A stretch of 64,000 nt of DNA from a virus (taxonomy: Duplodnaviria > Caudoviricetes): positions 1 through 64,000 of IMG/VR virus record IMGVR_UViG_3300033075_001896; one strand, written 5' to 3'. Shown piece by piece: positions 41,438 through 59,514 of the stretch (position 1 is the stretch's first letter; every line of letters begins with the position of its first letter). Under the pieces are notes generated by a model. It searched no databases. It saw only the letters and a list, made by a program, of their open reading frames with translations, and had not been told where the DNA came from. The position numbers and the translations under genes are program-made.

Positions 41438-41613
41438 GGGCGCTCACCTCGGCGGAGGAAGGTCCCCTCGTTCGCCCGCAGCCGCGCGCAGGCGCACTGC
41501 GCCTCGGACGGGCACGTGCAGCGCGGGAGGAAGCCCGTCTGAAGGGGCTCCTCCCCGCGTCCGCGCAGCACCTCGGCCGGGGGCTTCGGAGGGGGTTGGC
41601 AGGGGTCACTCAT
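41434..41613 (-). CDS. Small Cys-containing protein (59 aa)
   Basis: Manual translation MSDPCQ...RCTCPSEAQCAC...; ATGA overlap; preceded by a TGAC-N14 element. Confidence 0.5.
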   Translation of the reverse strand: MSDPCQPPPKPPAEVLRGRGEEPLQTGFLPRCTCPSEAQCACARLRANEGTFLRRGERP

Positions 41614-41628
41614 GCCCCTTGCCGCGCG

Positions 41629-42399
41629 TCAACGCGGCGGCGGGACGGTGGGCGCCGCGACGCGCACGGCGCGGACGGCGTGGAGTTCGCCCGTCCAGAA
41701 GACGTGCGTCGCGTAGGCGTAGGGGAGCCACGCGCGGCCCTGATCGCCCCAGGTGCTCCCCCACGAGTTCTGGATTCGAAAGGCCTTTCGCGCGTCGGAG
41801 TAGCCCACGAGGCAGAGGGCGTGTCCGCCCACGTAGACGCCCGAGGGGAGCGGGACCGTCGCGTCCTCCCCGAGACGTTCGAACGACTCGTAGATCCGCG
41901 CCCCCATCACGACGGGGTGGCCCGACGCGAGCTCCCACCGGAGCGTGTCGAGGTCCCAATCCAGGGGCTCCCAGGTGAGGAGCCGCGCGCGGCCGCGGTC
42001 GCGCTCGAGCTTCGTGGGCGGCGGGCCGCGGAAGTCGAGGCTGTGCTCCGCGAAGGGCCAGAGCGTGTCGGGGGCGAAGCCCGCCGTCTCGGCGTGCGTG
42101 AGCACGTCGGCGAGCATCGCCCCGGCGTCGCGCTCGACCGTGCCCGCGCGCATCCGGCCGCCCCGGTAGAGGTCGAGCGGGGACGGGAACCACGACGCCG
42201 ACCCTTGGAAGAGGAGCCGGAGGTAGAGGGCCAGCGCGGCCGCGTGGCCGGTGCAGCTCCCGAGCGGGCCCTGGTCGGTCGCCGGGTGCAGGTGCGCGAG
42301 CTCGACGTGGGGCGCGAGCGCGAGGAGATCGGACGCGGAGGCGCGCGTGCGCGTCCCGCGGTGCCCTTCGGGGGGCGGTGTCCAGCCGAAAGCCCTCAT
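41629..42399 (-). CDS. Papain-like C1A cysteine peptidase
   Basis: DQGPLGSCTG, GGHALCLVGY, IQNSWGSTWGDQG. Confidence 0.92.
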   Translation of the reverse strand: MRAFGWTPPPEGHRGTRTRASASDLLALAPHVELAHLHPATDQGPLGSCTGHAAALALYLRLLFQGSASWFPSPLDLYRGGRMRAGTVERDAGAMLADVLTHAETAGFAPDTLWPFAEHSLDFRGPPPTKLERDRGRARLLTWEPLDWDLDTLRWELASGHPVVMGARIYESFERLGEDATVPLPSGVYVGGHALCLVGYSDARKAFRIQNSWGSTWGDQGRAWLPYAYATHVFWTGELHAVRAVRVAAPTVPPPR

Positions 42400-42479
42400 G
42401 GCGTCCCGCGGACCTTCCAACGCACGACGGCGAAGGCGAGCATAAGCGCGCCGAGGAGGATGAAGCCGAGGAGCATCAT
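42396..42479 (-). CDS. 27-aa single-TM peptide
   Basis: MMLLGFILLGALMLAFAVVRWKVRGTP; ATGA overlaps on both sides. Confidence 0.5.
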   Translation of the reverse strand: MMLLGFILLGALMLAFAVVRWKVRGTP

Positions 42480-43063
42480 CGGACGCCACCGTCGGGCGGG
42501 TGAAGGTGGTCGAGGTCGCGGCGCAGGATCACGCCGCGGGACGCGGCGCGCAGCTCCAGCTCGCGCAGTTCCGCGTTGGTCGCGCGGCCTTCGGAGCGCC
42601 ACCCGGCGTCCCCGTCGCACCCGGGCACGAGCGTATCGACCAGGGCGGCGACGGTGTCGGTCACGCGCTCGAGGACCCGACCGAGCGCCACCCCGTTGTC
42701 CGTGAGGGTCTGCGCGGCGACGACGAGCGCGGTGCGGACGCCCCCGACGGCCGCGTGCGCGGCGCATCGGTCGCCGCCCCGTTGCTCGTACGCATCGAGG
42801 GCGGTCTGGAGACCCTCGGCGGCCGTCGCGACGCCATCGAGGGCGCGGCCCACGACCGTCCGTGCAGGTTCGGGGAGGATCAGGTCGGTGATGGCGTGCG
42901 CGGCGGGCACGGCCCACGTCAGGGTCGTGAGCACCGTGCGCGCGGTGTCCGTCCAGCTCGACGGCGTGACGGCGGGCGTGTCGGGCGAGGGTGGGGGGAG
43001 GGGGCGGCACGCGCCGATGAGCGCGAGCACCAGGGCGAGGAGAAACAGTCGGAGGATCTTCAT
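42476..43063 (-). CDS. Lipoprotein (possible spanin-like lysis accessory)
   Basis: MKILRLFLLALVLALIGAC lipobox; helical body; lysis context. Confidence 0.6.
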   Translation of the reverse strand: MKILRLFLLALVLALIGACRPLPPPSPDTPAVTPSSWTDTARTVLTTLTWAVPAAHAITDLILPEPARTVVGRALDGVATAAEGLQTALDAYEQRGGDRCAAHAAVGGVRTALVVAAQTLTDNGVALGRVLERVTDTVAALVDTLVPGCDGDAGWRSEGRATNAELRELELRAASRGVILRRDLDHLHPPDGGVR

Positions 43064-43750
43064 GCCCCTCCGCGGGGTGTCATCCCCGCGGCGCGTTAGC
43101 AGGCTTCGAGGTAGCCGCCGCGCAGGAAGCCGTGGTAGTCGCCCGCGAGGATCGACCCCCCGCCCGCGCCGCAGGTGTGCCCGTTCTTGTCGACGGTGAT
43201 CGCGGGGACCGCGCCGTGCCGCACCCAACAGCGGTGCGCGTTGTCGTCGGGCATCGTGCAGTTCGCTGCGCGCGAGTCGATCGTCCAGTCGCGGCCGTTC
43301 GGCAGGCGCACCGTGAGGCAGTAGTCATCATCCCCGACGTGGAACGACCCCACGAGGCCGTGCAGCCACTCGGCGTCCCACATCGCGCCGATCGGCGCCT
43401 CCTTGAGCGTCGTCGGTTCGCCGCCGTCCGAGCGCGCGTAGAGCGCCTCCTCGCGCACCTGATAGGGGTCCGTCGGGGCGAAGGGCTGCTTGCACGCCTC
43501 GCAGTGCGTCGGGTAGCGCGGGTCGTCGTGGGGGTAGCGCTCGGCGTCGTCCGCGTCGCGCGGGGGGCGCCCGTTGAGCGCGACCGTCGCGACGCCCTTC
43601 GTCGTCGCGTCGCAGCCCCAGGCGCCCTTCACGGTGCAGGGGCGGGTGGAGGTCGGGGAGAAGCGCCGAAGGTCCACGCGGGCCTCGCCCGTCGGCGTGA
43701 GGAAGAAGCAGGGGACGCGTTCCATGCCCCTCCGCGGGGTGTCATCCCCG
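43061..43750. repeat. 28-bp exact direct repeat (43061-43088, 43723-43750) flanking one gene; each copy is a late TGAC element
   Basis: CATGCCCCTCCGCGGGGTGTCATCCCCG at both positions. Confidence 0.9.
43096..43725 (-). CDS. Conserved-looking Cys/His-rich phage protein
   Basis: HCEAC; W.IDSRAANC...HRCWVRHG...SILAGDYHGFLRGG. Confidence 0.65.
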   Translation of the reverse strand: MERVPCFFLTPTGEARVDLRRFSPTSTRPCTVKGAWGCDATTKGVATVALNGRPPRDADDAERYPHDDPRYPTHCEACKQPFAPTDPYQVREEALYARSDGGEPTTLKEAPIGAMWDAEWLHGLVGSFHVGDDDYCLTVRLPNGRDWTIDSRAANCTMPDDNAHRCWVRHGAVPAITVDKNGHTCGAGGGSILAGDYHGFLRGGYLEAC

Positions 43751-44524
43751 TAGGCGGTCGGCGAGCTCGGTGACGAGCGGGATGCCGCCGCCGACGCCGA
43801 GCACCGCGAGGTGCGAGAGCCCCCGCACGTCGAGCGCGTCGCCGAGGAGCGCGAACCCGACCATCGCCGCCGCGCCGCCCGCGGCCGTCACGGGCCGGGC
43901 CTTGGCCGCCTTGAGCGCGCCCTCGACCCCGAGGGCCATCACGGACAGCGCGACCACGACGGGCGTCGGGACGGTGTGGCCGCGGCTCTCGAAGTAGAGC
44001 GTCACGACGGTCGTCAGGATGGCGATGAGGCCGCGCAACATGCGGCGGCTGTGGAGGTCGGCGATCTCGACGCGCGGGTCGCGCGGGGCAGGCGACGTAC
44101 TCGCGTCGACGGCCGTCGCCACCAGGTCGGACTTCGGCGCGGGCGGCACCGCGCTCGTCGGCACGGCCGTCGTGCGACCCGGGCGCGCGAGGAGCTCGTG
44201 CACGAGGCTGCGCAGCACGGCGGGCTCGAAGGGCTTGGAGAGGTAGCGCCACCCGCGCTCCCCTGCGATGCGCTCCAGCTCCTTTCCGTCCGCGCCCGAG
44301 AAGAGGAGCACCGGGAGCTGCTGCGCGGTGAGCGCGTCGTGGAGGCGCTCGGTCGCGACGCCGAGCACGAGGTCGAGGAGCACCGCGTCCGGTCGGTCGG
44401 CGAGGATCGCGGCGAGCGCGTCGCCCACGTCGCGGGCCTCGGTGACGGCGTGCTCCGGGCGGAGCATCGCCGCGACGGCGGCGCGTACCGCGTCGTTGTC
44501 GTCGATGAGAAGGATCTTCGGCAT
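43742..44524 (-). CDS. Receiver (REC) domain fused to a C-terminal multi-TM domain
   Basis: KILLIDD, phospho-acceptor D51 (DAVLLD), S76, K97-P98; 3-4 hydrophobic segments after a Pro/Ala linker. Confidence 0.85.
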   Translation of the reverse strand: MPKILLIDDNDAVRAAVAAMLRPEHAVTEARDVGDALAAILADRPDAVLLDLVLGVATERLHDALTAQQLPVLLFSGADGKELERIAGERGWRYLSKPFEPAVLRSLVHELLARPGRTTAVPTSAVPPAPKSDLVATAVDASTSPAPRDPRVEIADLHSRRMLRGLIAILTTVVTLYFESRGHTVPTPVVVALSVMALGVEGALKAAKARPVTAAGGAAAMVGFALLGDALDVRGLSHLAVLGVGGGIPLVTELADRLRG

Positions 44525-44599
44525 GGTCGCTCGTCGGTGATCCCGCAGCGCGGGAGGGACCGTCCCGCAGTGGGGCGGCGTTCACCGCTCGACACGACG

Positions 44600-44842
44600 T
44601 CACCCCGGCGGCGGAGCGGGCGCGGGCTCGATCACCCAGGTGGGCGGGAGCGGATCGGGGGCGGGCGCGAACCCCGGCGCCCCGGGCGGAGCGGCTTCGC
44701 GCACCTCCACGAGCGGGTCTTCGGTGTCGCCGACCTCGCGCGGGGTGCGGTAGATCGTGGCGCCCTCCCCGCGAAGGGAGTGGAGCAGATAGTTGCGAAT
44801 GCCCCGGTGCGGCGAAGGGGGGATGCGACGGTAGACGGCCAT
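44600..44842 (-). CDS. Small Pro-rich hypothetical protein
   Basis: GGAGG RBS, follows the tail gene. Confidence 0.45.
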   Translation of the reverse strand: MAVYRRIPPSPHRGIRNYLLHSLRGEGATIYRTPREVGDTEDPLVEVREAAPPGAPGFAPAPDPLPPTWVIEPAPAPPPG

Positions 44843-44844
44843 GG

Positions 44845-46041
44845 TCAGACGCCTCCAGGGCGACCCGTGCGGATCGCGTGAATCGCCACGTCGAGATTCA
44901 CACCGGAGCCCGTCGTGAGCCCCACGATCACGCAGTACGTCCCGGCCGCGCAGCGCACGGCGTTCCGCGCCGCGGCGGCATACCCGAGCCCCGCGTGATC
45001 GATCGTGCTGTAGATCGGGACCCACTTCGTCGGGAGCGCACCCGACGTGCCCGTGTTGATGCCGTACTTCCACGACACGGCGTCGTGCGTGCGCGTGATG
45101 AGGAACCACAGCTCCCCGCCCGTGCGCACGGCGTCGGTGAGGGCGGCTACCGAGATGATCGCGAGGGAGCTGTACGCCCCCGCATCGACGTACGCGGGCT
45201 CCACCTGCCCGTTCGTCCAGAAGGCGAAGTTGCAGGTGTTCTCGTCGTCGCTCCCGATGTTGAACACGATGCGCGTGGCCGAACTGCCGTCCCCGTTGAG
45301 GACCTGCACGCGCACCGCGAGGAGGCATTCCTCGGGCGACGTGAAGAGGTCGGGGATCTCCGCGCCGCAGAAGCCCATCGCCGCGGGGTCGACGTCCAGC
45401 GTGAGCTTGCCATCCGCCCACGTCGCGGTCGCCCCGCCCGTGGCGGTGAGCGCCGCCCACCCGTCGCCCGTCATGTCCTCGCTGCGCAGGCCCGCGGTCG
45501 TGGGCGCCGCCGACTGCCACACGCTCCCGTCGTAGGTGAGCACGTGCCCCGCCGTGGGCGACGTGGGCGCCTTGATCGCGCCGAGCTCGGCGAGCACGTC
45601 ATCGGCGGTCGCGCCCATCGAGCGGAAGCGCCACGCCCCGTTCACCCGCTTCCAAAGCGTGCCCGACCCGGAGCCCGAGGACACGTACCACTGGTCGCCC
45701 TCGCGCACGGGCGAGAGGGCGTCGCGCTCGGCGAGCGTGCCCGAGAGGACGCGCGCCCGCGCCGCGTAGCTCGTGCCCGAACCCGTGGAGAGGAGCATCT
45801 GCCCCGCGGCCGTGGCCGACGGGAGCGTCGCGCCGCCCATCGAGCGCCACGTGCTCCCGTCCCAGAGCGTCACGGCCGGCGTGTCGGTCGCGTAGTGGAG
45901 CGAGGGCTGCGCGGGGGACGCGGGCCGCGACCCCGCCACGGTCGCGCCCGCCCACAGGACGGCCGTCTCGGGCTCGATGAGCGTCGGCGGCTGCGTCGGA
46001 TCGACGAGGCGGCGACGGCTCGTGCCGGGGGAGAGCTGCAT
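44845..46041 (-). CDS. Tail fibre/receptor-binding-like protein
   Basis: Fibre-type repeats (LHYATDT...WDGSTW, GHVLTYDGSVW), C-terminal beta-rich domain. Confidence 0.6.
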   Translation of the reverse strand: MQLSPGTSRRRLVDPTQPPTLIEPETAVLWAGATVAGSRPASPAQPSLHYATDTPAVTLWDGSTWRSMGGATLPSATAAGQMLLSTGSGTSYAARARVLSGTLAERDALSPVREGDQWYVSSGSGSGTLWKRVNGAWRFRSMGATADDVLAELGAIKAPTSPTAGHVLTYDGSVWQSAAPTTAGLRSEDMTGDGWAALTATGGATATWADGKLTLDVDPAAMGFCGAEIPDLFTSPEECLLAVRVQVLNGDGSSATRIVFNIGSDDENTCNFAFWTNGQVEPAYVDAGAYSSLAIISVAALTDAVRTGGELWFLITRTHDAVSWKYGINTGTSGALPTKWVPIYSTIDHAGLGYAAAARNAVRCAAGTYCVIVGLTTGSGVNLDVAIHAIRTGRPGGV

Positions 46042-46044
46042 CGG

Positions 46045-47907
46045 TCACTTCTCCTTGAAGCCGAGGACGCGGACGGTGGCCGTGCCGCTGTAGCCGCTCG
46101 GGATGCGGTAGTCGAACTGCTGCGCGCCCCCGAGGTGCAGGTGCACCTCGCGGCGGACCTCCTGCGCGGCGGTGTTGGCCTCGACGAGGAGCGGCACGCC
46201 CGTGCCCGGGGCGTTGATCTTGCGCACCTCGACGCCGCCGTTCGCCGCCCCCGACGCGTTCACCTGAAGCTCCAAGAGCGCCAGCGTGACGGTCGAGCCG
46301 ACGGGGGGCACGAGGGACGCGCACGAGACGCTCGTCCACGAGGTCTGCGTCCCCGCCGTGAGCACGTCGAGGCCCGACGTGAAGATCGTCCGGTCCCAAT
46401 ACCACCAGCCCTCGTAGCGGTGCCCGGGGAGCGGCACGCCGGAGCCGTCGGTGCGGATCGGGCCGAGGTAGCGGTGCGTCCCGGCCGCGCCGCCCTTCCA
46501 CGTGTACGAGTCGTCCGGGGGCGTCGGCGAGACCTCGACCGCGAGCGTGCCGCCCGAGGCGTAGAGGTAGAGGTAGCGCCAGGCCCCGGCCGCGTAGCCC
46601 GAGGGCGTGATCGTGAAGCCGCCCGTCGCGCTGTAGCTCCGCTGCCCGAGGACCACGAGCTGAATCGGGGCGACGTAGATTTTCGTGCCTGCCCCGATGT
46701 CCTTCACCGAGTAGTTGCCGCCGATCAGGAGCCCGTTGAGGGAGTCGGTGACCGACGCGAGCGCGACGGTTTCGAGCGCCGAGGTGTCGAGCGCCCGCAC
46801 CGAGACCTTCTCGCCGCCCGAGAGCGCCGAGAGGAGCGTGACCGTGGTCGCGTCGGTCTCGGTGTACTCGGACTCGGCGAGCACCGCCCCATCGACGATC
46901 ACCTCCAGGCAGTGCGCCCCGGGCGTGTACGCGAACGGGAGGTTGAGCGCCGTCTGCGAGCTCGTCCCGGTCGTCTCGTAGTAGCGGCGCGTGCCCGTGG
47001 TCGCGCGCTGGAAGCCGCGCGCGTCCTGGAGGTTCTGCGGCGTGATCGTCGTCTGACTCGGCGAGAGGCCGACGAACGCGAGCGGGAGGACGCCGCGCGT
47101 CGAGGGCCGCACGGGCGAGGACGCCTCGGTGCCCTGCCGCACGCCGAGCGTGCCGTTCGCCGCGAGGTAGAGGAGGTCGATGCGCGGGTTCGAGGTCGGG
47201 GCCGTGAAGGTCGGCGACGTGCCGCCCACGTAGGCCACGTGCGTGTCGTCGATGTTGAAGCGCCCCGCGGCCACGCGCAGGGCCAGTGAGGGCGGGTCGG
47301 TGGGCGTGACCTCGCCGTCGCGCTTGACCGACTCGTCGTACACGTCCTCCGCGCGGTTGAGCACGGGGACGTCGAGGAGCCGCACGTCCGTCGTGCGGAT
47401 CGCCGTCAGGCCGTTCGTGATCTTCACCCGCCCGAGGAGCACGGGGTTCCCCGAGGGGGCCGCGGGGTAGGTCGCGGTCGAGACCGGCGCCGAGGTGCCC
47501 GAGACCCGCAGGATCTCGTACGACTCAGGCTGCGTTGTGTAGACCGTCGTCGCGTCCGGGGCGGTGGAGGGGTCCGCGGAGGTGCGCGCGAAGCGGAGGT
47601 AGATCGCGACGAAGCGCTCCTGCCCCGAGGCGACGGCCGTCGCCGTGTTGCCCGAGTCGAGGCTCAGATCCACGGTGACTGTGGTGGGGACGTTGAGGCG
47701 ACGTCCGAGCGCGTCGTACGCCACGCCCGCCGAGAGCTGGAGCGTCAGGTTCGGCGACGCCTGCTCCGTGAGCTGGAGCCCCGCGGCGACGCCGTAGCCG
47801 AGGAGGTCGGTGACGATCGCGCGGTCGGCGTTCTCGGCGTTGTCCTGCCAGGAGTGCACGTCCGTGTGCTCGATCACGAAGTCGCGGTGGTATACGCGTC
47901 GGTCCAT
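46045..47907 (-). CDS. Tail fibre/baseplate-associated structural protein
   Basis: YGVAAGL...GVAYDALGRR N-terminus, NPRIDLL repeat, LPFAYTPG module; follows baseplate J and I. Confidence 0.7.
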   Translation of the reverse strand: MDRRVYHRDFVIEHTDVHSWQDNAENADRAIVTDLLGYGVAAGLQLTEQASPNLTLQLSAGVAYDALGRRLNVPTTVTVDLSLDSGNTATAVASGQERFVAIYLRFARTSADPSTAPDATTVYTTQPESYEILRVSGTSAPVSTATYPAAPSGNPVLLGRVKITNGLTAIRTTDVRLLDVPVLNRAEDVYDESVKRDGEVTPTDPPSLALRVAAGRFNIDDTHVAYVGGTSPTFTAPTSNPRIDLLYLAANGTLGVRQGTEASSPVRPSTRGVLPLAFVGLSPSQTTITPQNLQDARGFQRATTGTRRYYETTGTSSQTALNLPFAYTPGAHCLEVIVDGAVLAESEYTETDATTVTLLSALSGGEKVSVRALDTSALETVALASVTDSLNGLLIGGNYSVKDIGAGTKIYVAPIQLVVLGQRSYSATGGFTITPSGYAAGAWRYLYLYASGGTLAVEVSPTPPDDSYTWKGGAAGTHRYLGPIRTDGSGVPLPGHRYEGWWYWDRTIFTSGLDVLTAGTQTSWTSVSCASLVPPVGSTVTLALLELQVNASGAANGGVEVRKINAPGTGVPLLVEANTAAQEVRREVHLHLGGAQQFDYRIPSGYSGTATVRVLGFKEK

Positions 47908-47929
47908 CGACCCTCGCGCGTGGTCACCC
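47908..47929 (-). promoter_or_regulatory. Late TGAC-N15-ATG element
   Basis: GGGTGAC CACGCGCGAGGGTCG ATG. Confidence 0.7.
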
Positions 47930-47975
47930 GTGGAGTTCGGCGACCCTCGGAGAACTTGTACCGCAGGTGGCGGCC

Positions 47976-49118
47976 ATGTACTTTGATCTCGCGATGTTCC
48001 TGATCTACTTGGACGCTGGCACCATCAACCACATTGCCGATGGCAAATGCCCTCCCGAACAGGTCGCGGACCTACACGCTGCCATGCGGGAGGTCGGCGC
48101 CTCGCTGATTCTTTCACTCGCGCATGTGTGGGACTTCTGCAACAACACGGACGACGCCACAAAGCAGCGTGTTGCGACGGCGATCGATGCGTTCCCTTCC
48201 CGTATGTTGATCGCGGACAGCCCCGAAGCTACCGAACGTGAGGCGCTCGACAGGATCGGTGATGGCGCGGAATTCGATGCAGACACCTACGCCCCGCCGC
48301 ACTGGCAGGGGCGATTGTTCCAGGCGCGTGACTTCATGCGTGTCTGCGAGCCGAAGGTGATGGATGCCGCCGACCGTTTCATCACGTGTGTTCGTGCCCT
48401 TACTGAAGCTCATCGGTTGGGCGTCCAGGCGAGGCGCGCATCCACCTCGGGTCCGTCGGCTCAAAAGCAGGAACGCGATGCGGTACGGGCCTTCCTCGAA
48501 GGGCTATTCGCAGCGCAAAACGATGAAGAAATCAAAGCGCTTGTCGAAATGCGCCTTGCCTCTCTATCTCCAGAAGCACGGGCGGCGAGCGACAAAATGC
48601 TCAAGGATGGTTTTGAAAAGGGCATCGCAATGTTTCCTCCGGAAGTACGCGAACAAATGCCGCAGTGGTCGCTCGACCTGTTTTGCCGCGCCGTCATGCA
48701 AACTCGCAGAGACGCGGAAACGCATGGAATTACCCCAGGACGGGCCGTCCAACTCGCGGTGAAACAGCCCGCACTAAACAGCGTCAACTGGGCGGGTGCA
48801 CGGATTCGTGGTGGGATGGACCGATGGTACGAGATCGCGGGTGCCGTGGCTCCCGGCATGGCGATCCGGGTGAAGATCATCGAGCAAAACACAGGCAACG
48901 CGATGCGCAACCCGCTGCACAGCGACACGGCCGACACGATCCATGTGCTCTACCTGCCCTACATGGATCTCTCGGTCGTGGATGCGAATAACTTCTCTGC
49001 CTACCAGTCGTTGCAGAGCAAGGTGAGACCCAGGCGCAAAGGGGTCGTCGTGAAAGATCCAGGGCGCGACCTGAGGCCGCTGATTCAGAGAATCAGGTCA
49101 CTTCCCATCGACCCGTGA
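47976..49118 (+). CDS. PIN-like domain protein (moron, lower GC)
   Basis: IYLDAGTI near the N-terminus and DTADTIHVLYLPYMDLSVVD near the C-terminus; visibly more A/T-rich; opposite strand to tail genes; start uncertain (47967/47976/47994). Confidence 0.6.
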   Translation: MYFDLAMFLIYLDAGTINHIADGKCPPEQVADLHAAMREVGASLILSLAHVWDFCNNTDDATKQRVATAIDAFPSRMLIADSPEATEREALDRIGDGAEFDADTYAPPHWQGRLFQARDFMRVCEPKVMDAADRFITCVRALTEAHRLGVQARRASTSGPSAQKQERDAVRAFLEGLFAAQNDEEIKALVEMRLASLSPEARAASDKMLKDGFEKGIAMFPPEVREQMPQWSLDLFCRAVMQTRRDAETHGITPGRAVQLAVKQPALNSVNWAGARIRGGMDRWYEIAGAVAPGMAIRVKIIEQNTGNAMRNPLHSDTADTIHVLYLPYMDLSVVDANNFSAYQSLQSKVRPRRKGVVVKDPGRDLRPLIQRIRSLPIDP

Positions 49119-49120
49119 CC

Positions 49121-50164
49121 TCACCCGAGGGCGGTGTTCCGTCCGAGCAGGGACGTGCCGAGGCGCCACGACGGGTGCCGCGCGGCGGCGTCGTCGAGCG
49201 TGACGGTCATCGTGGAGGGGCGCATCACCTCGATCACCTGCGCGAGCGCGCGCCGCTCGTCGCTCGTGAGCACGCGCGGCAGGACGAGCGCGAGCGTGAA
49301 CGCGTCGTCGGCCGGGGTCGCCCCGCGGGCCGACGCGGCGAGCGCCGTGGCCAGGACCTCGGTGGTCGCGAGCTCGATCCGGTCGCCCGCCGTGAGGCCC
49401 GTCGGATTCTCGCGGCGCCACACCCGCACGACCGCCCCCCGCGCGAGCGGCGCGGCGAAGGTGATCGTGGACGCGGACGTCTCCGACCACGCGGGCGCGT
49501 CCACGCGAAGACGGTCGACCGTCACGACCAGCGTCCCGATCCCCACCGTGTAGCTGAAGGGGAGCGTGAGCGCCGACTCGCCGCCGTAGGCCGTGTATTC
49601 ATGGCCGCGCGTGAGGAGCTCGACCCGTCGCGGCTCGACCGCGAGGAAGGCCGTCCGGTCGAGCTCCACCCCGTTGCGCCACGCCCGCAAGGTCCCTGTG
49701 TGCGGCGTCACGCGCCAGCGCGCGTCGGTCACGTCGATCGCGGTCTCGCCGCCCGTCGCGGTGTAGACGAACGAGAGGCCCCCGAGGTGCGACCGCCCGA
49801 GGCGCCACGCCTGACGTCGCTCGCCGCGCAGGTACGCCTCTTCGCCGAGGAAGAGGCGTACGGCGTCGAGGAGCCCGGGGGCCGTGCCCTTCTCGCGGTA
49901 GAGCGGCACGAGGAGCGCCACGACCTTGCGCTGGAGCGCCTCGGGGAGGGTCGTGTCGAGCGTCCAGCCCTTCGCCCGCGCAAGCTCGGGGAGCCACCGC
50001 GCCGCGCAGGTGAGCGGGTCGTCGAGCGTGAGGAGCTGCCCCGTGTCGTCGTAACGGTCGCCGAGCGCGTCGTCGGCGAGGCGCACGAGGGACGCGAGGG
50101 GTTCGGCCGGGGCCTCGCGCCGCCAGAACCGGGGGAGGGCGTCCCAGAGCGTCGGGCGGGCCAT
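49121..50164 (-). CDS. Phage tail/baseplate protein (P2 gpI-like)
   Basis: LWDALP...DPLTCAARWLPELA...GW...LYREKGT. Confidence 0.8.
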   Translation of the reverse strand: MARPTLWDALPRFWRREAPAEPLASLVRLADDALGDRYDDTGQLLTLDDPLTCAARWLPELARAKGWTLDTTLPEALQRKVVALLVPLYREKGTAPGLLDAVRLFLGEEAYLRGERRQAWRLGRSHLGGLSFVYTATGGETAIDVTDARWRVTPHTGTLRAWRNGVELDRTAFLAVEPRRVELLTRGHEYTAYGGESALTLPFSYTVGIGTLVVTVDRLRVDAPAWSETSASTITFAAPLARGAVVRVWRRENPTGLTAGDRIELATTEVLATALAASARGATPADDAFTLALVLPRVLTSDERRALAQVIEVMRPSTMTVTLDDAAARHPSWRLGTSLLGRNTALG

Positions 50165-51618
50165 CAGGGCGTCTCCTGAATCACCGTCACGGCGGGCGTC
50201 GCGGCGAGCGCGGCGAACTGCACGGCCGTGAAGGTCGGGTCGCTCGCGGGCGACGTGACCTCGACGCGCGTCACGCCCGCGAGGGACTGGCAGGCGTCGT
50301 ACATCCTCGACCGCGGCACCGGGTAGCCGAAGCGCAGCACGTAGAAGCCCTCCTCGTCGCGCGCCCCCGGCGTCCAGAGCGCGGCGAGGGCGGCCTGCGC
50401 GGCGGTCTGGAGGGCCGCGGCGTCCACGTCCGCGCGGCAGTAGACCGTCACGGCGATCGACTGCGCGACGTACACGGCGCTCACGACCGACACCTCAAGG
50501 CCCGCGGGGCAGGGCTTGGTCTCGGTGACGTACGTGTGCACCGCGTCGAGGAGCGTCGCGTCGGGCGATCCGCCCGCCGTCGGGACGACGTAGAGGCGGT
50601 GCTGGAGGTGGCCGAGGGTCGCGTCCTCGCGCCGCGTGTGGCAGAGCGCGCGGGCGACGCCCGGCACCTCGACCGCGTGGAGCTCGTAGTCCTCGCGGCT
50701 CACCGTCCGATCCGTGGCGCGGAGCGAGTCGGGCGCGGCGTACCGGGCGTGCTCCAGGCTCTCGCGGTCGGTGCCGCCCGCGGCGTCGCCGGGGTTCGTC
50801 ACGGTGACCTCGACGGGCAGGCCCGCGGCGGTCGCGAACGAGCCCTGCACGCGCCGCAGCGTGCCGCGCCGCACGCGCCCGGCCGCGCCGAGCGTGGTCC
50901 GGTAGGTGACGGTGATCGTGGCGCCCTCGGCGGGGCGCTTGCCGTTCACCCCGTCGCCGAAGACGACCGTGGCGCGCTCGTCGGCGTCGCGCTCGACCAC
51001 GTAGTGCTGCGACGCGGACGTCGACGAGAGGAAGTTCGCGACGCGCGTCCACGTCACGCCGCCGACCCGCACCACCTCGCTCGCGCGCACGAAGGGCGTG
51101 GCCGAGAGGGTCACGCGCTGGCCCGTGGGCCACGCGCCCGCCGCGTCGCCGACGAAGCTCTGCGTCTGCGCGCGCCCCTCGGTGCAGGCCACCGTGCGCG
51201 ACGTCTGCCCCGGCGCGAAGGTCACCGCGGCGTCGGTCGTGTAGACCACCGCGCCGTCTTCCGTGTAGACCTCGGTCCCCGCGGCGATCGGCACCGCGTC
51301 CGACTGCGACGGGATCGCGAGCGAGACGGTGACCGTCGGGGGCGTCGGCGACGCGAGCTCGTACGCGAGGCCCCGCGCGTGGTCGATCACGCTCTGGCGC
51401 AGGCGCGCGCGGTGGATGAACGCCTCGTTGAGGCCGCGGTTCTGGTAGTACGTGAGCTTCGCGCCGACGGTCGCGACGGCCACGAACCAGCGCCGGTCGG
51501 GCGACCCTTCGGAGAGGTCGAGGCCCGCGAGCGAGGGCTCCCCCGCGGCGTTCGTCGTGAGCTCCGCGAGGATGCCCTCGAAGTCGAGCACGGTGTACTG
51601 AAGCGCACGAGGGGCCAT
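50164..51618 (-). CDS. Baseplate J/gp6-like wedge protein
   Basis: DFEGIL, NEAFI..ARLRQSV, VFGDGVNGKRP, GGTDRES, RTVSREDY. Confidence 0.9.
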   Translation of the reverse strand: MAPRALQYTVLDFEGILAELTTNAAGEPSLAGLDLSEGSPDRRWFVAVATVGAKLTYYQNRGLNEAFIHRARLRQSVIDHARGLAYELASPTPPTVTVSLAIPSQSDAVPIAAGTEVYTEDGAVVYTTDAAVTFAPGQTSRTVACTEGRAQTQSFVGDAAGAWPTGQRVTLSATPFVRASEVVRVGGVTWTRVANFLSSTSASQHYVVERDADERATVVFGDGVNGKRPAEGATITVTYRTTLGAAGRVRRGTLRRVQGSFATAAGLPVEVTVTNPGDAAGGTDRESLEHARYAAPDSLRATDRTVSREDYELHAVEVPGVARALCHTRREDATLGHLQHRLYVVPTAGGSPDATLLDAVHTYVTETKPCPAGLEVSVVSAVYVAQSIAVTVYCRADVDAAALQTAAQAALAALWTPGARDEEGFYVLRFGYPVPRSRMYDACQSLAGVTRVEVTSPASDPTFTAVQFAALAATPAVTVIQETP

Positions 51619-51641
51619 CGCCCCTCGCGGGTGGTCACCCC
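51619..51641 (-). promoter_or_regulatory. Late TGAC-N15-ATG element
   Basis: GGGGTGAC CACCCGCGAGGGGCG ATG. Confidence 0.7.
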
Positions 51642-51717
51642 GACGCGGTGGCACGCCGCGCGCAACGCGGGGACGGGCGCGCGGCCGCACAGGGCGACCC
51701 GCGTTCAGGAGCACGCC

Positions 51718-52812: not shown

Positions 52813-52840
52813 CGGCCCGTCGCGTGCAGCGCCACCGCGC

Positions 52841-53881
52841 ATGATTGGACTCGCGCATGCAGACGGGAAGGAGTACCCCAACCTCGCGCTCGCGTCTCTC
52901 TCCGCGTATTTCAAAGCGCTCGGCGAAGAGGTGCGACTCATCCGCCCCGACGATCGCCCCGACCTTTTCCGGGGCGGCTTCCCCGAACGCATCTACGGCT
53001 CGTCGATCTTCGACGAATCCGCTTCGCAGCGAGAGGACATTGAGCAGCACTGGGGGCACGTCCTGTGGGGCGGGACCGGGGTGCGTCTCGCTTCCTCACT
53101 CCGCGAGGTTGATGCGTCGGTGGATTGGGACGCAATCCGCCCCGACTTCTCGCTCTACCCCGATTTCGCTGCATCCATGGGGTTCCTCACGAGGGGGTGC
53201 CGTCTGCGCTGTGGTTTTTGCGTGGTGCCCGAGAAGGAGGGGAGGCCGCGCGTCGTGTCGGACGTGCACCGAGTGTGGCGCGGCGAGGGGCACCCTCGGC
53301 ACCTGCACCTTCTCGACAACGACGCCTTCGCGAAGCCGTTGCGAGACTTCTGGCGAGATGCGGTTGAGGAGTTCCGGAAGGGTCGGTTCCGCGTGTGCTT
53401 TACGCAGGGGATCAACGTCCGACTGATCGACGACGAGGCGGCGGCGCTCATCGCGCGGACGCCTTATTACGGCAACGACTTCAACAAGCGCATCCTCTAT
53501 ACGGCGTGGGATAACCTTCGCGACGAATCCATCTTCAAGGCGGGTGTTGAGCGACTGCGCCGCGCGGGTGTGTCACCCCACAGGCTCCGCGTGTTCATGC
53601 TCGTGGGCTACCGCGAAGACGAGACGTGGGAGGAGAGGTTCTATCGGTTCGCGGAGATCGCGGCTCTGCGTGCCGAACCCTACGTGATGGTGTATGGCGC
53701 CGAAGGCGCACGCCCCGAACTCGACGCGTTCCAACGGTGGTCGAATCGTTGGTTCTTCCGCTCGATCGCGTGGCCGGACTACGCGCGTGATGGGAAGTGG
53801 GACACGCGTATTTATGGCGACGCGCGCGCGGACTCAGACGCCGCGTGGAACCGCGTGGTAGAGCGAATGCTCACCCGTTGA
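52841..53881 (+). CDS. Radical SAM protein
   Basis: YPNLAL, TRGCRLRCGFCVVPEKEG, LLDND, QGINVRL. Confidence 0.88.
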   Translation: MIGLAHADGKEYPNLALASLSAYFKALGEEVRLIRPDDRPDLFRGGFPERIYGSSIFDESASQREDIEQHWGHVLWGGTGVRLASSLREVDASVDWDAIRPDFSLYPDFAASMGFLTRGCRLRCGFCVVPEKEGRPRVVSDVHRVWRGEGHPRHLHLLDNDAFAKPLRDFWRDAVEEFRKGRFRVCFTQGINVRLIDDEAAALIARTPYYGNDFNKRILYTAWDNLRDESIFKAGVERLRRAGVSPHRLRVFMLVGYREDETWEERFYRFAEIAALRAEPYVMVYGAEGARPELDAFQRWSNRWFFRSIAWPDYARDGKWDTRIYGDARADSDAAWNRVVERMLTR

Positions 53882-54227
53882 CTTCCACGACGCGGGACTC
53901 GCCCGTCCCGCGCGGGCGGAGGGTGATCGCGGCCTTCGTGCTCCGCTCCCCCTGCGTGATCTCCGCGCGCTCGACCTTGAGCCGCTTCTCCCACCGACCG
54001 AGCGCGTCGGCCGTCGACGTCTTCATCTCCAGCGCGAGCGCGGCGTCGTTGGGCTCGTGGAGGAGCTGGCGCACGCGCGACCCGAACTCGGGCTGAAACT
54101 CGATCTCGCCGGGGGTCGTGTCGAGGATCGTGCGCGCGGCGACGAGGGCCGTTGCGGTGCCGGTCACGGTCGCGAGGTAGCCGCGGGCGCCGAGGTGCAG
54201 CGGGCGGTCGTAGCCGAAGGTCGTCAC
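53871..54227 (-). CDS. Baseplate gp25/GPW-like protein
   Basis: ILDTTPGE..FQPEFGS...LLHEP...LGRWEKRL. Confidence 0.88.
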   Translation of the reverse strand: MTTFGYDRPLHLGARGYLATVTGTATALVAARTILDTTPGEIEFQPEFGSRVRQLLHEPNDAALALEMKTSTADALGRWEKRLKVERAEITQGERSTKAAITLRPRGTGESRVVEVNG

Positions 54228-54526
54228 GGGAGGATCTCCACCTGCACGCGCGTGAGTGAGGGGATGCGCAGCTCGCCGGTCGTGGGGAGGTTGAAGGGGT
54301 CGATCACGTCGTTCGCGTCGGCGATCACCCACCAGAGATGCGGCGTGCCGTAGAACTCCTGGGCGAGGAGTCCGAGCTTCGTCGCGGCCGTGGCGGGCAC
54401 GCGAGCGTCGGGGTCGCGCGCGTCCTCGGGCAGGAGCGCCGGGGCGCGCGGGCCGTGGAAGGTCTCGTCGCGCACGAGGTCGCGGTAGTGGGGCTCGCGG
54501 GCGAAGGGGTTGTAGACCGAGCTCAT
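54224..54526 (-). CDS. Baseplate wedge LysM/gp53-like protein
   Basis: LAQEFYGTPHLWWVIADAN.VIDPF...LRIP. Confidence 0.85.
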   Translation of the reverse strand: MSSVYNPFAREPHYRDLVRDETFHGPRAPALLPEDARDPDARVPATAATKLGLLAQEFYGTPHLWWVIADANDVIDPFNLPTTGELRIPSLTRVQVEILP

Positions 54527-54530
54527 CGGA

Positions 54531-55010
54531 TCACCTTCCGGCCAGGACGTCGTCGCGGGAGAGGTCGCCGTTCACGGGCACGTTCGTCCACTTGAGCGTG
54601 GCGCGCAGCTCCCCGGGCGCCGTGGTGTCGGGGTCGAACCAGGGCCCGCTCTTGAGCATGACCTCCGTGATGATCACACGCAGCGTCCGGTAGCCGCCGA
54701 AGACGAGGAGCACCGGGTGCGGCCCGTTCCTGAGGCGCCCTGTGTCGTCGTACTCGGGGAGCGGGAGCGCTTCGAGCTGGCGGCGCACGCGCTCGATGTC
54801 TTGCGCGTCGAGTTCGCGCCGGATGAACACGAGCTCGACCTCCCCGTCGCGCCCCTTGCCGCCCGTGTAGTGCTGGCGCGGGAAGGAGCCGCCGCGGACG
54901 TTCTTCTCCGACCAGTTCGCGCCGACCGTGACCGGGAGGTCCTCGGGGTTGAACTGCCAGTCGAGGCGCAACCCGTCGACAAGATCGCGGAGGTAGCCCG
55001 TGGTCGCCAC
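54531..55010 (-). CDS. Tail tube initiator (CIS tube-like) protein
   Basis: WQFNPE...QHYTGG...PHPVLLVFG...VIITEV...FD. Confidence 0.75.
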   Translation of the reverse strand: MATTGYLRDLVDGLRLDWQFNPEDLPVTVGANWSEKNVRGGSFPRQHYTGGKGRDGEVELVFIRRELDAQDIERVRRQLEALPLPEYDDTGRLRNGPHPVLLVFGGYRTLRVIITEVMLKSGPWFDPDTTAPGELRATLKWTNVPVNGDLSRDDVLAGR

Positions 55011-55059
55011 GCCCCTCCGCGCGGGGTCACCCGGGAGGGATGACTGCGCGGCGAAGGGC
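55011..55059. promoter_or_regulatory. Back-to-back pair of late TGAC-N15-GTG elements
   Basis: Minus: GGGTGAC CCCGCGCGGAGGGGC GTG(55010); plus: GGATGAC TGCGCGGCGAAGGGC GTG(55060). Confidence 0.75.
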
Positions 55060-56484
55060 GTGGGCGTCCTCGATCAGGTCCCGATCCTCTACCTCTCGCT
55101 CGACGGCCAGCGCGCGCCCGCCGACCTCACGCGCCGGGTGCTCGAACTCACCGTCGACGAGGGCGAGAAGAAGGGCAAGGCCCTCGCGCTGCACGTCACG
55201 CTCAAGCTCGACGACGCGGACCACACGCTCCGCGAGCGCCTGCCGCAGGGGACGGTACTCGGCGTGCGGTGGGGGTATCCCGGCACGCTCTCCGCCCCGT
55301 TCGGCGCCGTCGTCCACGAGGTCACGCCGAGCTACGACGACGCGACCGTGACGGTCGAGGCGTTCGGCCGGGAGCTTGAGCTCTCGCGCGGCGCGATCCG
55401 CCACGTCTTCGAGGGCCGCACCTTCCGCGAGGCCGCCGAGGAGATCGCGCGCCACGCGGGGCTCACGGTGCGCTTCGAGGCGGAGGACACGATCCGCTTC
55501 GACGGGCAGGTGATCGACCACGAGACGGCCTGGAGCTGGATCACGCGCCGCTCCGCCGAACTCGGGCTCTCGGTCGAGATGGAGGGCGACACGATCGTGG
55601 TGCGGGAGCCGCCCGTGGGCGACCCCCCCGCGCTCGTGCTCCTCCACGGGTGGCGGAACGGCAACGTGCTCAACTTCGAGGTCAAGGAGGACACGAAGAA
55701 GGGGCGCACCGAGGACGAGGGGGTCGTGGCGCTCTTTCACGACCCGGCCTCGGGCCAGGTCCTCGCGCACGCGGCGGGCGACCCGAACACGACCCGGCAG
55801 ACGCTCGCCGCGCGACGACTCGCCGCCGAGCGCCGCCGCGCGCAGGCCGCCGAGGGGGCGGGGCTTTCGGCCTTCCTCGCGGCGCACCCCGACCTCCAGA
55901 CCGCCACGCCCGAGGCGCAGGCCGAAGCGTGGCAGGCGTCGCGGGCGGCGGCCCGACGTTCGAACGCCGCGCCGACCGAGGACGACGCGGCGTTCTTCGT
56001 GGTGAGCACCGAGAGCGGGGAGGTGCTCTCCGAGGGCGGGCGCGCCCCGGTGACCTCACCGCCGAACGGAGCCCCCGAGGCCGGACGCGTCGTCACGCCG
56101 CCCGCGACGGGCTCGACCGCCGCCGCGCGCCAGCACGTCGCGCGGGTGGCGTCGGCGACCTTCAAGCACCACGAGGCGCGGAAGGTCGAGGCCACCGCGA
56201 AGGCCCTCGGGCTCCCGCGCGCGCGCCGCGGGGTCCTCGTCAAGGTCCTCGGGGTCGAGGCCCGCGACGCGGGGCTCTGGCGGGCGAAGGGGTGCCGCCA
56301 CACGATCGACGCGAGCGGCTACGAGACCGAGCTCACGCTCACGCGCGACGGCGTGAACGCGGGGCGGCGCAACCCGCGGCGCACCGGGGCCGCGCAGCCG
56401 ACGCCCACCACGGGTCAGCCGGGGCGCGCCGCGGGGTCGCCGCAGACGACCGAGGCGCCCGATGTGGTGAACTTGGAGGAGTAG
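55060..56484 (+). CDS. Baseplate hub / late control D-like protein (inverted relative to other tail genes)
   Basis: VRWGYPG, ETAWSWITRRSAELG, GLP..RRG..V.VLG...GLWRAKGCRHTIDASGYETEL. Confidence 0.8.
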   Translation: MGVLDQVPILYLSLDGQRAPADLTRRVLELTVDEGEKKGKALALHVTLKLDDADHTLRERLPQGTVLGVRWGYPGTLSAPFGAVVHEVTPSYDDATVTVEAFGRELELSRGAIRHVFEGRTFREAAEEIARHAGLTVRFEAEDTIRFDGQVIDHETAWSWITRRSAELGLSVEMEGDTIVVREPPVGDPPALVLLHGWRNGNVLNFEVKEDTKKGRTEDEGVVALFHDPASGQVLAHAAGDPNTTRQTLAARRLAAERRRAQAAEGAGLSAFLAAHPDLQTATPEAQAEAWQASRAAARRSNAAPTEDDAAFFVVSTESGEVLSEGGRAPVTSPPNGAPEAGRVVTPPATGSTAAARQHVARVASATFKHHEARKVEATAKALGLPRARRGVLVKVLGVEARDAGLWRAKGCRHTIDASGYETELTLTRDGVNAGRRNPRRTGAAQPTPTTGQPGRAAGSPQTTEAPDVVNLEE

Positions 56485-59474: not shown

Positions 59475-59514
59475 CACCCGTCGCGGGCGCGTCAACGCGG
59501 CGCGCGGTTGGCGC

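Follow-up and report, generated by a model that had tools for sequence, protein, structure and literature searches.

A conserved short DNA signal precedes the late genes of an uncultured wastewater phage

Late genes in this phage repeatedly begin a short distance downstream of the same TGAC-containing word, which raises the question of whether the word is a signal and, if so, at what level it acts. The window analysed is a 64,000-nucleotide stretch (positions 1 to 64,000 of the viral record). A preliminary description of it listed six sites in which exactly 15 nt separate TGAC from an ATG or GTG, and all six are present (starts 43063, 43725, 47907, 51618 and 55010 on the minus strand, 55060 on the plus strand; Table 1), as is the 14-nt variant before 41613. 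Two looser copies fared differently: that at 1654-1675 is plausible (GTCGAC, N16, SD leader), whereas that at 163-180 is simply a GTG start followed by ACC. The analysis below shows that a conserved short DNA signal in this uncultured wastewater phage is real.

The full unit, here called the cassette, is cG-G(T/G)TGAC followed by 13-17 nt (mostly 14-16), with a 3' end of A-G-G-G-G-C. Within the hexamer G(T/G/A)TGAC the TGAC is unchanged in 44/44 sites, and CG or GG usually lies directly 5' of it. The G-run is part of a second conserved box (A-G-G-G-G-C) anchored to the 3' edge of the cassette, where the edge dinucleotide is a C in 32/44 sites and then a purine in 41/44. What follows the edge varies: an ATG or GTG, a leader containing a Shine-Dalgarno (SD) sequence and beginning at the edge (at least 11 sites across the family), or base 1 of a tRNA-Met. 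The length of the unit is constant regardless of which of these follows. TGAC-N15-start is therefore a special case of a constant unit of hexamer plus 13-17 nt whose edge sometimes carries no start codon; the exact 15-nt spacing holds for the six sites but not for the family. Because it also precedes a tRNA, which is untranslated, the cassette is not a start-codon device.

Table 1. Cassettes, looser copies and candidate reader genes, with coordinates in the window unless stated otherwise.
Feature	Position	Strand	Hexamer and spacer	Start or gene	Context
Cassette	41611..41635	-	GTTGAC 41628-41633, N14	ATG 41613, 59-aa ORF with an ATGA overlap to the following gene	Hexamer TGA is the stop of peptidase gene 41629-42399; best match of the relatives' matrix, 22.7 bits
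Cassette	43061..43088	-	GATGAC 43079-43084, N15	ATG 43063, 195-aa lysis-region gene	28-nt exact copy of 43723..43750; upstream gene stop is TAA, 14 nt earlier
Cassette	43723..43750	-	GATGAC 43741-43746, N15	ATG 43725, 209-aa gene	Hexamer TGA is the stop of gene 43742-44524
Probable distal copy	44583..44606	-	GGTGAC 44599-44604 and 15-nt block	About 59 nt before ATG 44524	14.9 bits; in the 320-bp gap heading the lysis cassette
Cassette	47905..47930	-	GGTGAC 47923-47928, N15	ATG 47907, 620-aa tail-fibre-region gene	Heads the unit downstream of a 908-bp low-GC gap; 90% identity over 29 nt with the cassette at 51612-51640
Cassette	51616..51641	-	GGTGAC 51634-51639, N15	ATG 51618, baseplate wedge gene 50164-51618	Inside a 99-bp divergent intergenic region
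Cassette	55008..55033	-	GGTGAC 55026-55031, N15	GTG 55010, tube-like/baseplate operon	Back to back with the next, filling the 49-bp divergent gap 55011-55059
Cassette	55037..55062	+	GATGAC 55039-55044, N15	GTG 55060, inverted tail/hub gene 55060-56484	Gene is phrog_52, tail protein
Cassette	59475..59498	-	GTTGAC 59491-59496, N13	GTG 59477, 103-aa HTH gene	16.2 bits
Looser copy	1636..1677	-	GTCGAC 1670-1675, N16 ending in G-rich box	ATG 1638	13.0 bits; SD leader, then the ATG, after the G-rich box
Candidate trans-acting reader of the hexamer	23270..23839	+		189-aa Cys/His and sigma70 region-4 protein	Early/middle operon
Late paralogue of 23270..23839	70414-71046 of the contig, outside the window	-			E = 6e-9 to the early copy

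About two dozen structural and lysis genes, plus one tRNA, begin at the end of the motif. Head and sheath genes outside the window had been proposed as a prediction set, and the motif was indeed found there before the portal, protease/scaffold, head-tail adaptor, tape-measure, sheath and tube genes. In the structural and lysis modules, a cassette precedes nearly all starts except those that overlap the upstream gene or lie within 11 nt of it; among gaps of at least 15 nt in these modules, about 15 of 20 carry one (matrix score at least 12.9 bits), and more are recognised by eye. Every divergent or separated late unit is headed by a cassette, including the inverted tail gene at 55060, as had been suggested, but the element is not special to the heads of blocks. 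It was also said to precede lysis and structural genes only. This is correct in that the cassette is late and not early: the matrix gives no good sites before early genes at 1-40 kb, bar the loose copy at 1638, and non-structural gene junctions on the same strand have none. It is too narrow in that the tRNA-Met, the HTH gene starting at 59477 and possibly the gene at 1638 are carriers as well.

A pattern of this kind could in principle arise at ordinary gene junctions of a 72% GC genome, where a TGA stop and a start codon flank a short spacer that contains a G-rich ribosome binding site. TGA is the common stop, the G-run is SD-like, and bare TGAC-N15-RTG occurs at chance level (9 matches vs 8.7 expected). 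GGRTGAC is likewise not over-represented genome-wide (24 copies vs 27 +/- 5.5 in simulations), with 19 of the 24 on the minus strand. However, the full motif is above chance and its placement is non-random, with an orientation that follows the genes. Eight of the 24 GGRTGAC copies lie 14-17 nt before a co-oriented start, the starts having been called independently of the motif, where 0.06 would be expected (binomial p = 1e-15); in the control, 1/24 copies of the reverse complement lies within 40 nt. GGGTGAC was found 8 times in upstream windows vs 0.4 expected. The background comparison set out in the preliminary description thus goes against the bare pattern and in favour of the full motif and its placement.

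Moreover, the motif predicts sites between genomes. A matrix trained on three relatives alone (L165, L166 and L004) and then scanned over this genome yielded 11 matches of at least 16 bits, against a null mean of 1.8 and maximum of 4, and all 11 are late-gene sites. The motif is kept before orthologous genes of phages at 44-55% portal identity, and in L165 all 9 copies lie on the gene strand. In close relatives the hexamer is changed at 0/114 positions and the spacer at 12/130; spacer and upstream flank together are changed at 43/510 (p = 3e-4 against the hexamer). The motif is specific to this phage family. An ordinary junction would leave these observations unaccounted for, together with the invariance of the hexamer while its flanks drift, the several sites found in divergent gaps or downstream of a separate stop, and the same-strand non-structural junctions that lack the motif. 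In addition, just 5/45 sites have a hexamer TGA that also ends the upstream gene, and the SD-like run lies at 0-4 nt and is missing in most L165 and L004 sites. Contradicted by stop-codon counts, the cross-genome matrix, hexamer invariance and SD spacing, the ordinary-junction explanation is highly improbable.

Genes that abut a cassette all start with ATG or GTG, and an SD core at 5-11 nt was found for only 3/33 of them vs 57/107 other genes (p = 5e-6). The earlier remark that the purine run is too near the start agrees with this: its 4-nt core lies at 0-4 nt in 11/15 abutting sites of this genome. The data support the view that this run does not function as an SD. Leaderless messages are known from the late gene V of P2 and from lambda cI transcribed from PRM. 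In mycobacteria, an ATG or GTG at the 5' terminus is enough for leaderless translation (PMC4633059). Like leaderless messages of phages and bacteria, the cassette genes open, at what is presumed to be the 5' end, with ATG or GTG and lack a usable SD. Known leaderless promoters differ in that they carry a standard -10 element from -12 to -7, and the cassette conserves none.

With regard to promoter class, the hexamer is TTGACA-like, lies on the coding strand upstream of the gene and is oriented as a -35 element. The start codon follows 13-17 nt past it, so that a TANNNT -10 element placed 16-18 bp past the -35 would land in codons 2-3, and there is no A/T enrichment at these codons or within the block. 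The geometry matches no known holoenzyme, which counts against the promoter reading: with only 15 bp between a -35-like hexamer and the start, there is no space for a -10. A sigma70 consensus scan gave 0 sites at 41-60.8 kb and likewise 0 in the early region, and is hence uninformative. Nor is there a conserved GG 9-10 nt upstream of the hexamer, as in sigma54 elements, where GG and GC stand 10 bp apart (-24/-12; TGGCAC-N5-TTGC), and the assertion of a geometry unlike sigma70 or sigma54 stands. Just two true sigma54-type elements (TGGC-N7-TTGC) were found in the genome, both before other genes. Both abut their ATG (TTGC-N14/15-ATG), so the cassette is not alone in having a near-leaderless design.

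The explanation that we favour, with a probability of about 0.5, is that the cassette is a late promoter specific to the phage family and yields mRNAs that are leaderless or carry a 5' SD. What we infer here is that the cassette acts as a promoter, where transcription begins and which protein reads the hexamer. The cassette is the sole candidate promoter of the divergent late units. A phage factor would direct host RNA polymerase to it, and transcription would begin at the edge or no more than a few bases from it. With a start codon at the edge, the product would be a leaderless or near-leaderless mRNA translated independently of an SD; otherwise the transcript would open with an SD leader or the tRNA-Met. 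Late genes that overlap or lie close together form groups, each of which would thereby possess its own start signal. Coverage of the RNA-library contigs is flat, which counts against a promoter.

The likely readers of the hexamer, judging by their sequences, are the phage Cys/His (Zn) proteins with a sigma70 region 4. The early copy matches Pfam Sigma70_r4 (PF04545; E = 4.4e-8, 33.0 bits vs a cut-off of 24.1) and its recognition helix, TRERTRQLE, is as in sigma70 region 4.2 and matches the helix with which sigma70 reads TTGACA. Its late paralogue has no Pfam match of its own but is homologous to proteins carrying PF04545. Zn/sigma70_r4 proteins with a TRER(T/V)RQ helix are encoded by both this phage and L004. 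A protein with region 4 only is not a sigma factor, which counts against the promoter reading, and the proteins scanned yielded neither an RNA polymerase nor a region-2 protein.

Late promoters of T4 are read by a split sigma, gp55/gp33, through an element (TATAAATA) centred near -10, and give mRNAs with leaders. As in T4, one short element without a -35/-10 pair precedes many late genes or gene groups, and T4's reliance on phage-encoded sigma fragments has a parallel here, where the reader is a candidate. The cassette differs: it is GC-rich, resembles a -35 element and lies 15 nt before the start codon. No homologues of gp55, gp33 or gp45 were seen among the proteins scanned. A further analogy, with no homology claimed, is GafA, a phage-derived gene transfer agent regulator whose sigma-factor-like DNA-binding domain binds near the core promoter of structural genes, with an unusual RNA polymerase contact (PMC9638019). 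GafA serves a single promoter or a handful and carries a second, DnaA-like domain; the candidate readers would serve about two dozen sites and have a Cys/His domain.

Alternatively, the cassette could be an RNA-level element in a polycistronic late RNA, which we regard as unlikely. It might be a processing site at whose 3' edge a host or phage endoribonuclease cuts, so that the tRNA and the leaderless or 5'-SD mRNAs are set free, or it might serve a translational regulator as a start-associated operator. Consistent with this, the edge marks where the translation initiation region begins and is also the mature tRNA 5' end, and the unit can sit within the coding sequence of the gene before it, the portal/protease junction being an example. 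Long RNA-library contigs also span several cassettes, a weak point as the libraries may contain DNA. In the two GC-richest genomes (G000 and L166) the G-run forms the 3' arm of a small hairpin 3' of the hexamer; the arms differ between the two yet are complementary, and the hairpins fold more stably than shuffles of their own composition (p = 0.035 and p = 0.012, respectively). The SD-like second box and this hairpin could point to an RNA-level role. However, by the same shuffles the hairpin is not kept in L165 (p = 0.6) or L004 (p = 0.3), and no T-tract lies 3' of it. A hairpin at a start codon without an SD would also block internal initiation of highly expressed genes, and divergent units would require additional, unseen promoters within the opposite genes. 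Furthermore, the constant part is a -35-like DNA word for which the phage has matching region-4 DNA-binding proteins, and no nuclease candidate was identified.

Such an operator would be comparable to the Start-Associated Sequences (SAS/ESAS) of Cluster K mycobacteriophages, present at 11-19 copies per genome in one orientation immediately 5' of some start codons (PMC3203893). The SAS is a 13-bp word, GGGATAGGAGCCC, located 3-7 bp from the start with AGGAG at a workable SD spacing; it precedes non-structural genes only, is kept across subclusters before different genes, and has an SD-like core yet conserved positions unable to pair with 16S rRNA (PMC3203893). Both are family-specific asymmetric repeats before the starts of a subset of genes. 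The cassette word, in contrast, is -35-like, lies 13-17 nt upstream and serves structural and lysis genes, its SD is missing or misplaced, and it also precedes SD leaders and a tRNA. Sequence, distance and gene class thus place the cassette outside the SAS, and the comparison is an analogy.

A third possibility is silencing, in which a phage DNA-binding protein, either the repressor or a region-4 protein, would block RNA polymerase at the entrance to late genes in the lysogen or in early infection. The model is phage L5 and Cluster A, where immunity repressor bound to 13-mer stoperators spread genome-wide stops elongation (PMC9283540). The phage is temperate (serine integrase and cI-like HTH), and about 20 promoters in about 40 kb would be unusual for a temperate phage, which counts against the promoter reading. 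More than 20 asymmetric sites lie in short intergenic spaces, oriented with transcription as in L5, and the core resembles a -35 word; the phage also has an early-expressed region-4 protein. Sites are not found throughout the genome, however: they are late only, and early lytic genes, which silencing should cover, have no good ones. A roadblock requires no fixed distance to a start codon, SD or tRNA end, yet here it is 13-17 nt throughout. Silencing would also leave the late units without a promoter and the edge-anchored second box without an explanation, and we consider it distinctly unlikely.

Taken together, the preliminary interpretation is partly supported, and the late promoter remains our preferred reading. 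PeSLs, the promoter/stem-loop cassettes of T4-type phages, are reported to combine early sigma70 promoters with terminator-like stem-loops in hyperplastic regions (PMC2839356, PMC4122927). They resemble the present cassettes in being short repeats at gene boundaries that possibly let modules move, and the 28-nt exact duplicate, the 90% identical pair and the cassette on the inverted hub gene offer a parallel. The cassette differs from PeSLs in being late rather than an early sigma70 promoter with a stem-loop, and recombination at cassettes is putative. If the late promoter reading is true, late blocks could function after insertion, separation or inversion, because each late group would have its own start signal.

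The preliminary description placed a TGAC-N15-start element before late genes, and its six sites with a 15-nt spacer, together with a 14-nt variant before 41613, are present exactly as given there. As a bare pattern, TGAC-N15-RTG is found at chance level (9 matches, 8.7 expected), and GGRTGAC is not enriched genome-wide (24 copies vs 27 in simulations). Genes were called with a self-trained codon log-odds model that did not take the motif as input. Measured against these calls, 19/24 GGRTGAC copies are on the gene strand and eight lie 14-17 nt before a co-oriented, independently called start, where 0.06 would be expected (p ~1e-15). For the reverse complement, 1/24 falls within 40 nt of a start. 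Moreover, GGGTGAC is the top enriched 7-mer except for an ordinary SD word. The non-randomness of the element is in its placement, not in its copy number.

Relatives were reached via portal homologues. These comprise near-identical strains (L003, L163 and L164, 92-97% portal identity) and the more distant L004/L006 (55%), L005 (48%), L166 (46%; 74.6% GC, in a 449-kb contig) and L165 (44%; 65.6% GC). In all of them (44-97% identity) orthologous genes are preceded by the motif, which in L165 takes the form GCGG-GTTGAC-N15-ATG, with nine copies on the gene strand and none on the other. A two-box matrix trained on L165, L166 and L004 alone, and then scanned over this genome, returned 11 matches at >=16 bits (null mean 1.8, maximum 4), all top 11 being late-gene sites, and 22 at >=14 bits (null 8.1). 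Amongst the close strains, 0/114 aligned hexamer positions are changed, compared with 12/130 in the spacer and 31/380 in the upstream flank. Portal relatives at 30-35% identity, including prophages in Kofleriaceae MAGs, show no word that is over-represented at a set position ahead of starts. An IMG/VR scan with a 15-base L165-type motif found 38 contigs with one match each, the other candidate sites in them being random-looking, and so no further carriers. A megablast of 21 kb against a phage collection gave no match, and tblastn with the protease found distant Rhodobacter phages only.

Alignment of 44 sites reveals a unit, here called a cassette, that is broader than the preliminary description had it: the 15-nt sites stand as described, and to them are added sites with a leader, a tRNA and distances from TGAC to a fixed 3′ edge of 13-17 nt (mode 15). 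TGAC is invariant and is preceded by G in 44/44 sites, with G or C before that. A second box is keyed to the edge and not to the hexamer, with A at -6 (30/44), G from -5 to -2 and C at -1 (32/44), and the first base after the edge is a purine in 41/44 sites. What adjoins the edge is variable. At some sites it is the ATG or GTG of the class first described (abutting sites). In at least 11 others a leader with an SD word begins at the edge and the start follows 14-20 nt further on; such leadered sites are seen in this genome before sheath, tube, 78351 and 73446, and in L165, L166 and L004 before several genes, among them the L165 capsid gene. The adaptor gene is abutting in one phage and leadered in another. 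Since a gene may be either, depending on the phage, the unit is the constant part and the start codon is just one possible neighbour. Two pairs of cassettes are identical or nearly so, first codons included (see table), which suggests that cassettes have been copied or converted.

A junction of a stop codon and an SD sequence was rejected as an explanation, because the TGA of the hexamer supplies the stop of the upstream gene in just 5/45 family sites. At the others the hexamer comes after a separate stop, the site is in a divergent gap, or the upstream ORF contains the entire unit, which is the case between portal and protease. Of the abutting genes, 3/33 have an SD core at 5-11 nt compared with 57/107 other genes (p = 5e-6), and most abutting genes of L165 and L004 have no SD-like sequence whatever. 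An ordinary gene junction is considered very improbable.

The virus record is a single sequence of 91,917 bp with 72% GC, of which the window is the first 64 kb. Family searches show the phage to be a temperate myovirus, with genes for replication and lysogeny (serine integrase, DnaB, primase, C5 methylase, cI-like HTH), the virion (portal, protease/scaffold, major capsid, adaptor, sheath, tube, tape measure, baseplate wedge, gp25-like, tail/hub) and packaging (large terminase). Structural and lysis genes occupy the - strand from ~88 kb down to 40.4 kb, with + strand inserts and a regulatory block (56.7-60.6 kb) breaking the run. Where gaps in the structural and lysis modules are >=15 nt, most downstream genes have a cassette; the matrix finds it at ~15/20 such gaps at >=12.9 bits, and more copies can be read by eye. 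Structural and lysis genes that have none mostly overlap the upstream gene or lie <=11 nt from it. A cassette stands at the head of each late unit that is divergent or separated: the units at 88142, 55010, 51618 and 47907, the lysis genes (a probable distal copy, ahead of 44524) and, on the + strand, the inverted tail gene at 55060. The 49-bp gap between 55010 and 55060 is filled entirely by two cassettes back to back. The head and sheath genes outside the window, offered in advance as a prediction set, do carry the motif: in these 28 kb it precedes the portal, protease/scaffold, adaptor, tape-measure, sheath, tube and first packaging-operon genes. Comparable gaps of non-structural genes at 79-87 kb, and the early genes at 1-40 kb, have no cassette. 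The exceptions amongst genes that are neither structural nor lysis genes are a loose copy before 1638, a copy before the HTH gene at 59477 and the tRNA described below. Repeated copies ahead of gene units might also act as a stoperator-like roadblock (PMC9283540), which we regard as improbable.

Several other features of this layout were observed. A stretch of lower GC (0.66) between the tail-fibre and baseplate genes, without a confident late-strand gene, is probably an insert (moron), and a cassette restarts the unit after it. Inside the protease/scaffold gene, GGTGAC is followed by an SD word and an in-frame ATG, which may mark a nested start for the scaffold, equipped with a signal of its own. 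GGTGAC is also found ~80 nt upstream of a gene for a small EAD1-domain protein. HAD_SAK_2 and DSP/PTP-SAK-like domains, which are parts of the 'Swiss Army Knife' RNA-repair proteins, are here encoded by separate phage genes.

GTTGAC and 16 nt end exactly at base 1 of a tRNA-Met (CAT) that is supported by ARAGORN and by Rfam (67 bits); for any one tRNA, a hexamer would be so placed by chance with a probability of ~0.002. As a tRNA is not translated, this cassette argues against a purely translational device. The cassette overlaps the stop of an HTH_3 gene. Three G:C pairs close the anticodon stem of the tRNA, which is initiator-like, yet C1:G72 is paired; an initiator tRNA of the phage's own would suit a programme in which translation is leaderless. 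Near its structural genes L165 has a tRNA-Met too, with GTTGAC 65 nt upstream. The block before the edge often folds into a GC hairpin of 4-6 bp in this genome and in L166, with the G-run as its 3′ arm and with arms that vary in sequence and remain complementary. Folding energy is better than in shuffles of the same composition in this genome (p = 0.035) and in L166 (p = 0.012), but not in L165 (0.6) or L004 (0.3). The hairpin was therefore rejected as the core of the element and is treated as an accessory or compositional feature; a split ribosome binding site bridged by it was dropped, as it is not conserved. In an mRNA, a hairpin against a start that lacks an SD would hinder internal initiation, so a block lying upstream of the transcript fits better. 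A role at the RNA level, through processing at the edge or as a start-associated operator like the Cluster K SAS (PMC3203893), is judged unlikely; if the cassette did act at that level, it would join the start-associated sequences of mycobacteriophages, themselves unexplained, as a second case with no relation to them.

The best supported reading is that the cassette is a family-specific late promoter, to which we give a probability of about 0.5, promoter function being predicted. Transcripts would begin at the edge or a few bases from it; those of abutting genes would have no leader, nor would that of the tRNA, and the others would open with the SD. The many single-element late promoters of T4 provide a precedent. 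There is precedent also for translation from a 5′-terminal ATG or GTG without a leader (PMC4633059) and for a sigma-like, phage-derived activator that binds a core promoter, GafA (PMC9638019). The weak point is the geometry, as neither the sigma70 nor the sigma54 holoenzyme suits a -35-like word that lies 15-16 bp from +1 and is not accompanied by a -10. A scan with the sigma70 consensus gave no site in either the late or the early regions and so does not discriminate. A promoter for a single-subunit polymerase of the T7/SP6 type was dropped, no such polymerase being found (the 886-aa protein is the tape measure). An N4-type hairpin promoter was dropped for want of a giant virion polymerase and because the distance from loop to start is wrong, and lambda nut/boxB because there are ~20 copies and not two. 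Some probability is kept for an explanation that we have not thought of. In four metatranscriptome runs (X15-X18), compared in the form of assembled contigs with positions 1-20000 of L001, a piece of this phage, ~95%-identical strains were present at an even depth over the structural genes, with neither starts nor ends visible; the signal may be RNA or carried-over DNA. Wastewater metatranscriptome libraries from two studies contain such strains, and the lineage is common in such plants.

Two paralogous proteins are candidates for reading the cassette. The early/middle-operon copy matches Sigma70_r4 above the Pfam cut-off. The late copy, in the neck region, has no Pfam match of its own, is homologous to the early copy and to PF04545-bearing proteins, and is placed by a protein atlas in viral 'sigma factor-like HTH' clusters. 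Throughout the family, a helix-turn-helix of the region 4.2 type comes after Cys/His positions that do not vary. The TRER(T/V)RQ helix is kept in the early copy and in the L004 homologue, and the recognition helix of the late copy has diverged. The AlphaFold model of the early protein is poor (mean pLDDT 53), and phmmer with the late paralogue found no match amongst PDB sequences. A sigma70 region 4.2 helix of this type reads the TTGACA -35 element. The hexamer is a -35 word in both sequence and orientation, which makes these proteins its natural candidate readers, and we infer from sequence that they may read it. In a bolder version, the region-4/zinc protein would read the TGAC word ~16 bp upstream and make the host RNA polymerase start at a fixed point without a -10, so that the late proteome and the initiator-like tRNA-Met would come from ~20 autonomous cassettes as leaderless RNAs. 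This new promoter architecture is possible but doubtful.

Near-consensus sigma54-type elements (TGGC-N7-TTGC) precede the late region-4 gene, where the close strains L003 and L163 have kept the element, and a PadR-like regulator gene. In both, 14-15 nt separate TTGC from the ATG, and the -12 geometry known for such elements puts the predicted start just 3-4 nt ahead of the ATG. These elements therefore also adjoin the ATG, and start-abutting promoters seem to be a habit of this phage. Their presence suggests that the host has sigma54. Fis-type HTH_8 is a DNA-binding domain typical of sigma54 activators, and two phage proteins that carry it, without an ATPase domain, could belong to a sigma54-dependent tier.

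Coordinates of features discussed in the text (contig, full virus record; L001 and L002, pieces of the phage).
Feature	Coordinates	Strand	Remarks
Early region-4 protein gene	window 23270-23839	+	Sigma70_r4, E = 4.4e-8
DSP/PTP-SAK-like phosphatase gene	window 25316-25891	+
Cassette pair	window 43061-43088 and 43723-43750		28 nt, identical
Cassette pair	window 47901-47929 and 51612-51640		29 nt, 90% identical
Low-GC stretch	window 47930-49120
Back-to-back cassettes	window 55011-55059
HAD_SAK_2 domain protein gene	window 57884-58357	-
Sigma54-type element	window 59185-59199	-	before PadR-like regulator gene at 59169
HTH_8 protein gene	window 60673-60987	+
Late region-4 protein gene	contig 70414-71046	-
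Sigma54-type element	contig 71061-71075 (L001 9061-9075)	-	before late Zn/sigma70_r4 gene
Putative nested scaffold start	contig ~75507-75535	-
EAD1-domain protein gene	contig 78415-78864 (L001 16415-16864)	-	Pfam E = 8.5e-8
HTH_8 protein gene	contig 79916-80968	-
tRNA-Met	contig 90918-90993 (L002 12918-12993)	+

Taken together, these data show that the cis element is real, conserved and specific to late genes, and that its geometry is unusual and well defined; a cognate protein plausibly goes with it. It is a variant of known phage signals (late promoter classes and start-associated repeats) for which a mechanism is proposed, and it is paired with a concrete trans-acting candidate, for which in vitro tests need no culture of the host. 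The motif corrects start-codon calls, for example at 51618, 55060, 69601 and the 59-aa ORF at 41613, and flags late genes in relatives that have not been cultured. Should the cassette be a promoter, the geometry of its start site lies outside current models of sigma70 and sigma54 initiation. A temperate myovirus would then use leaderless messages, gene group after gene group, for the entire structural and lysis programme, and there would be a simple explanation for the continued expression of scrambled and inverted tail modules.
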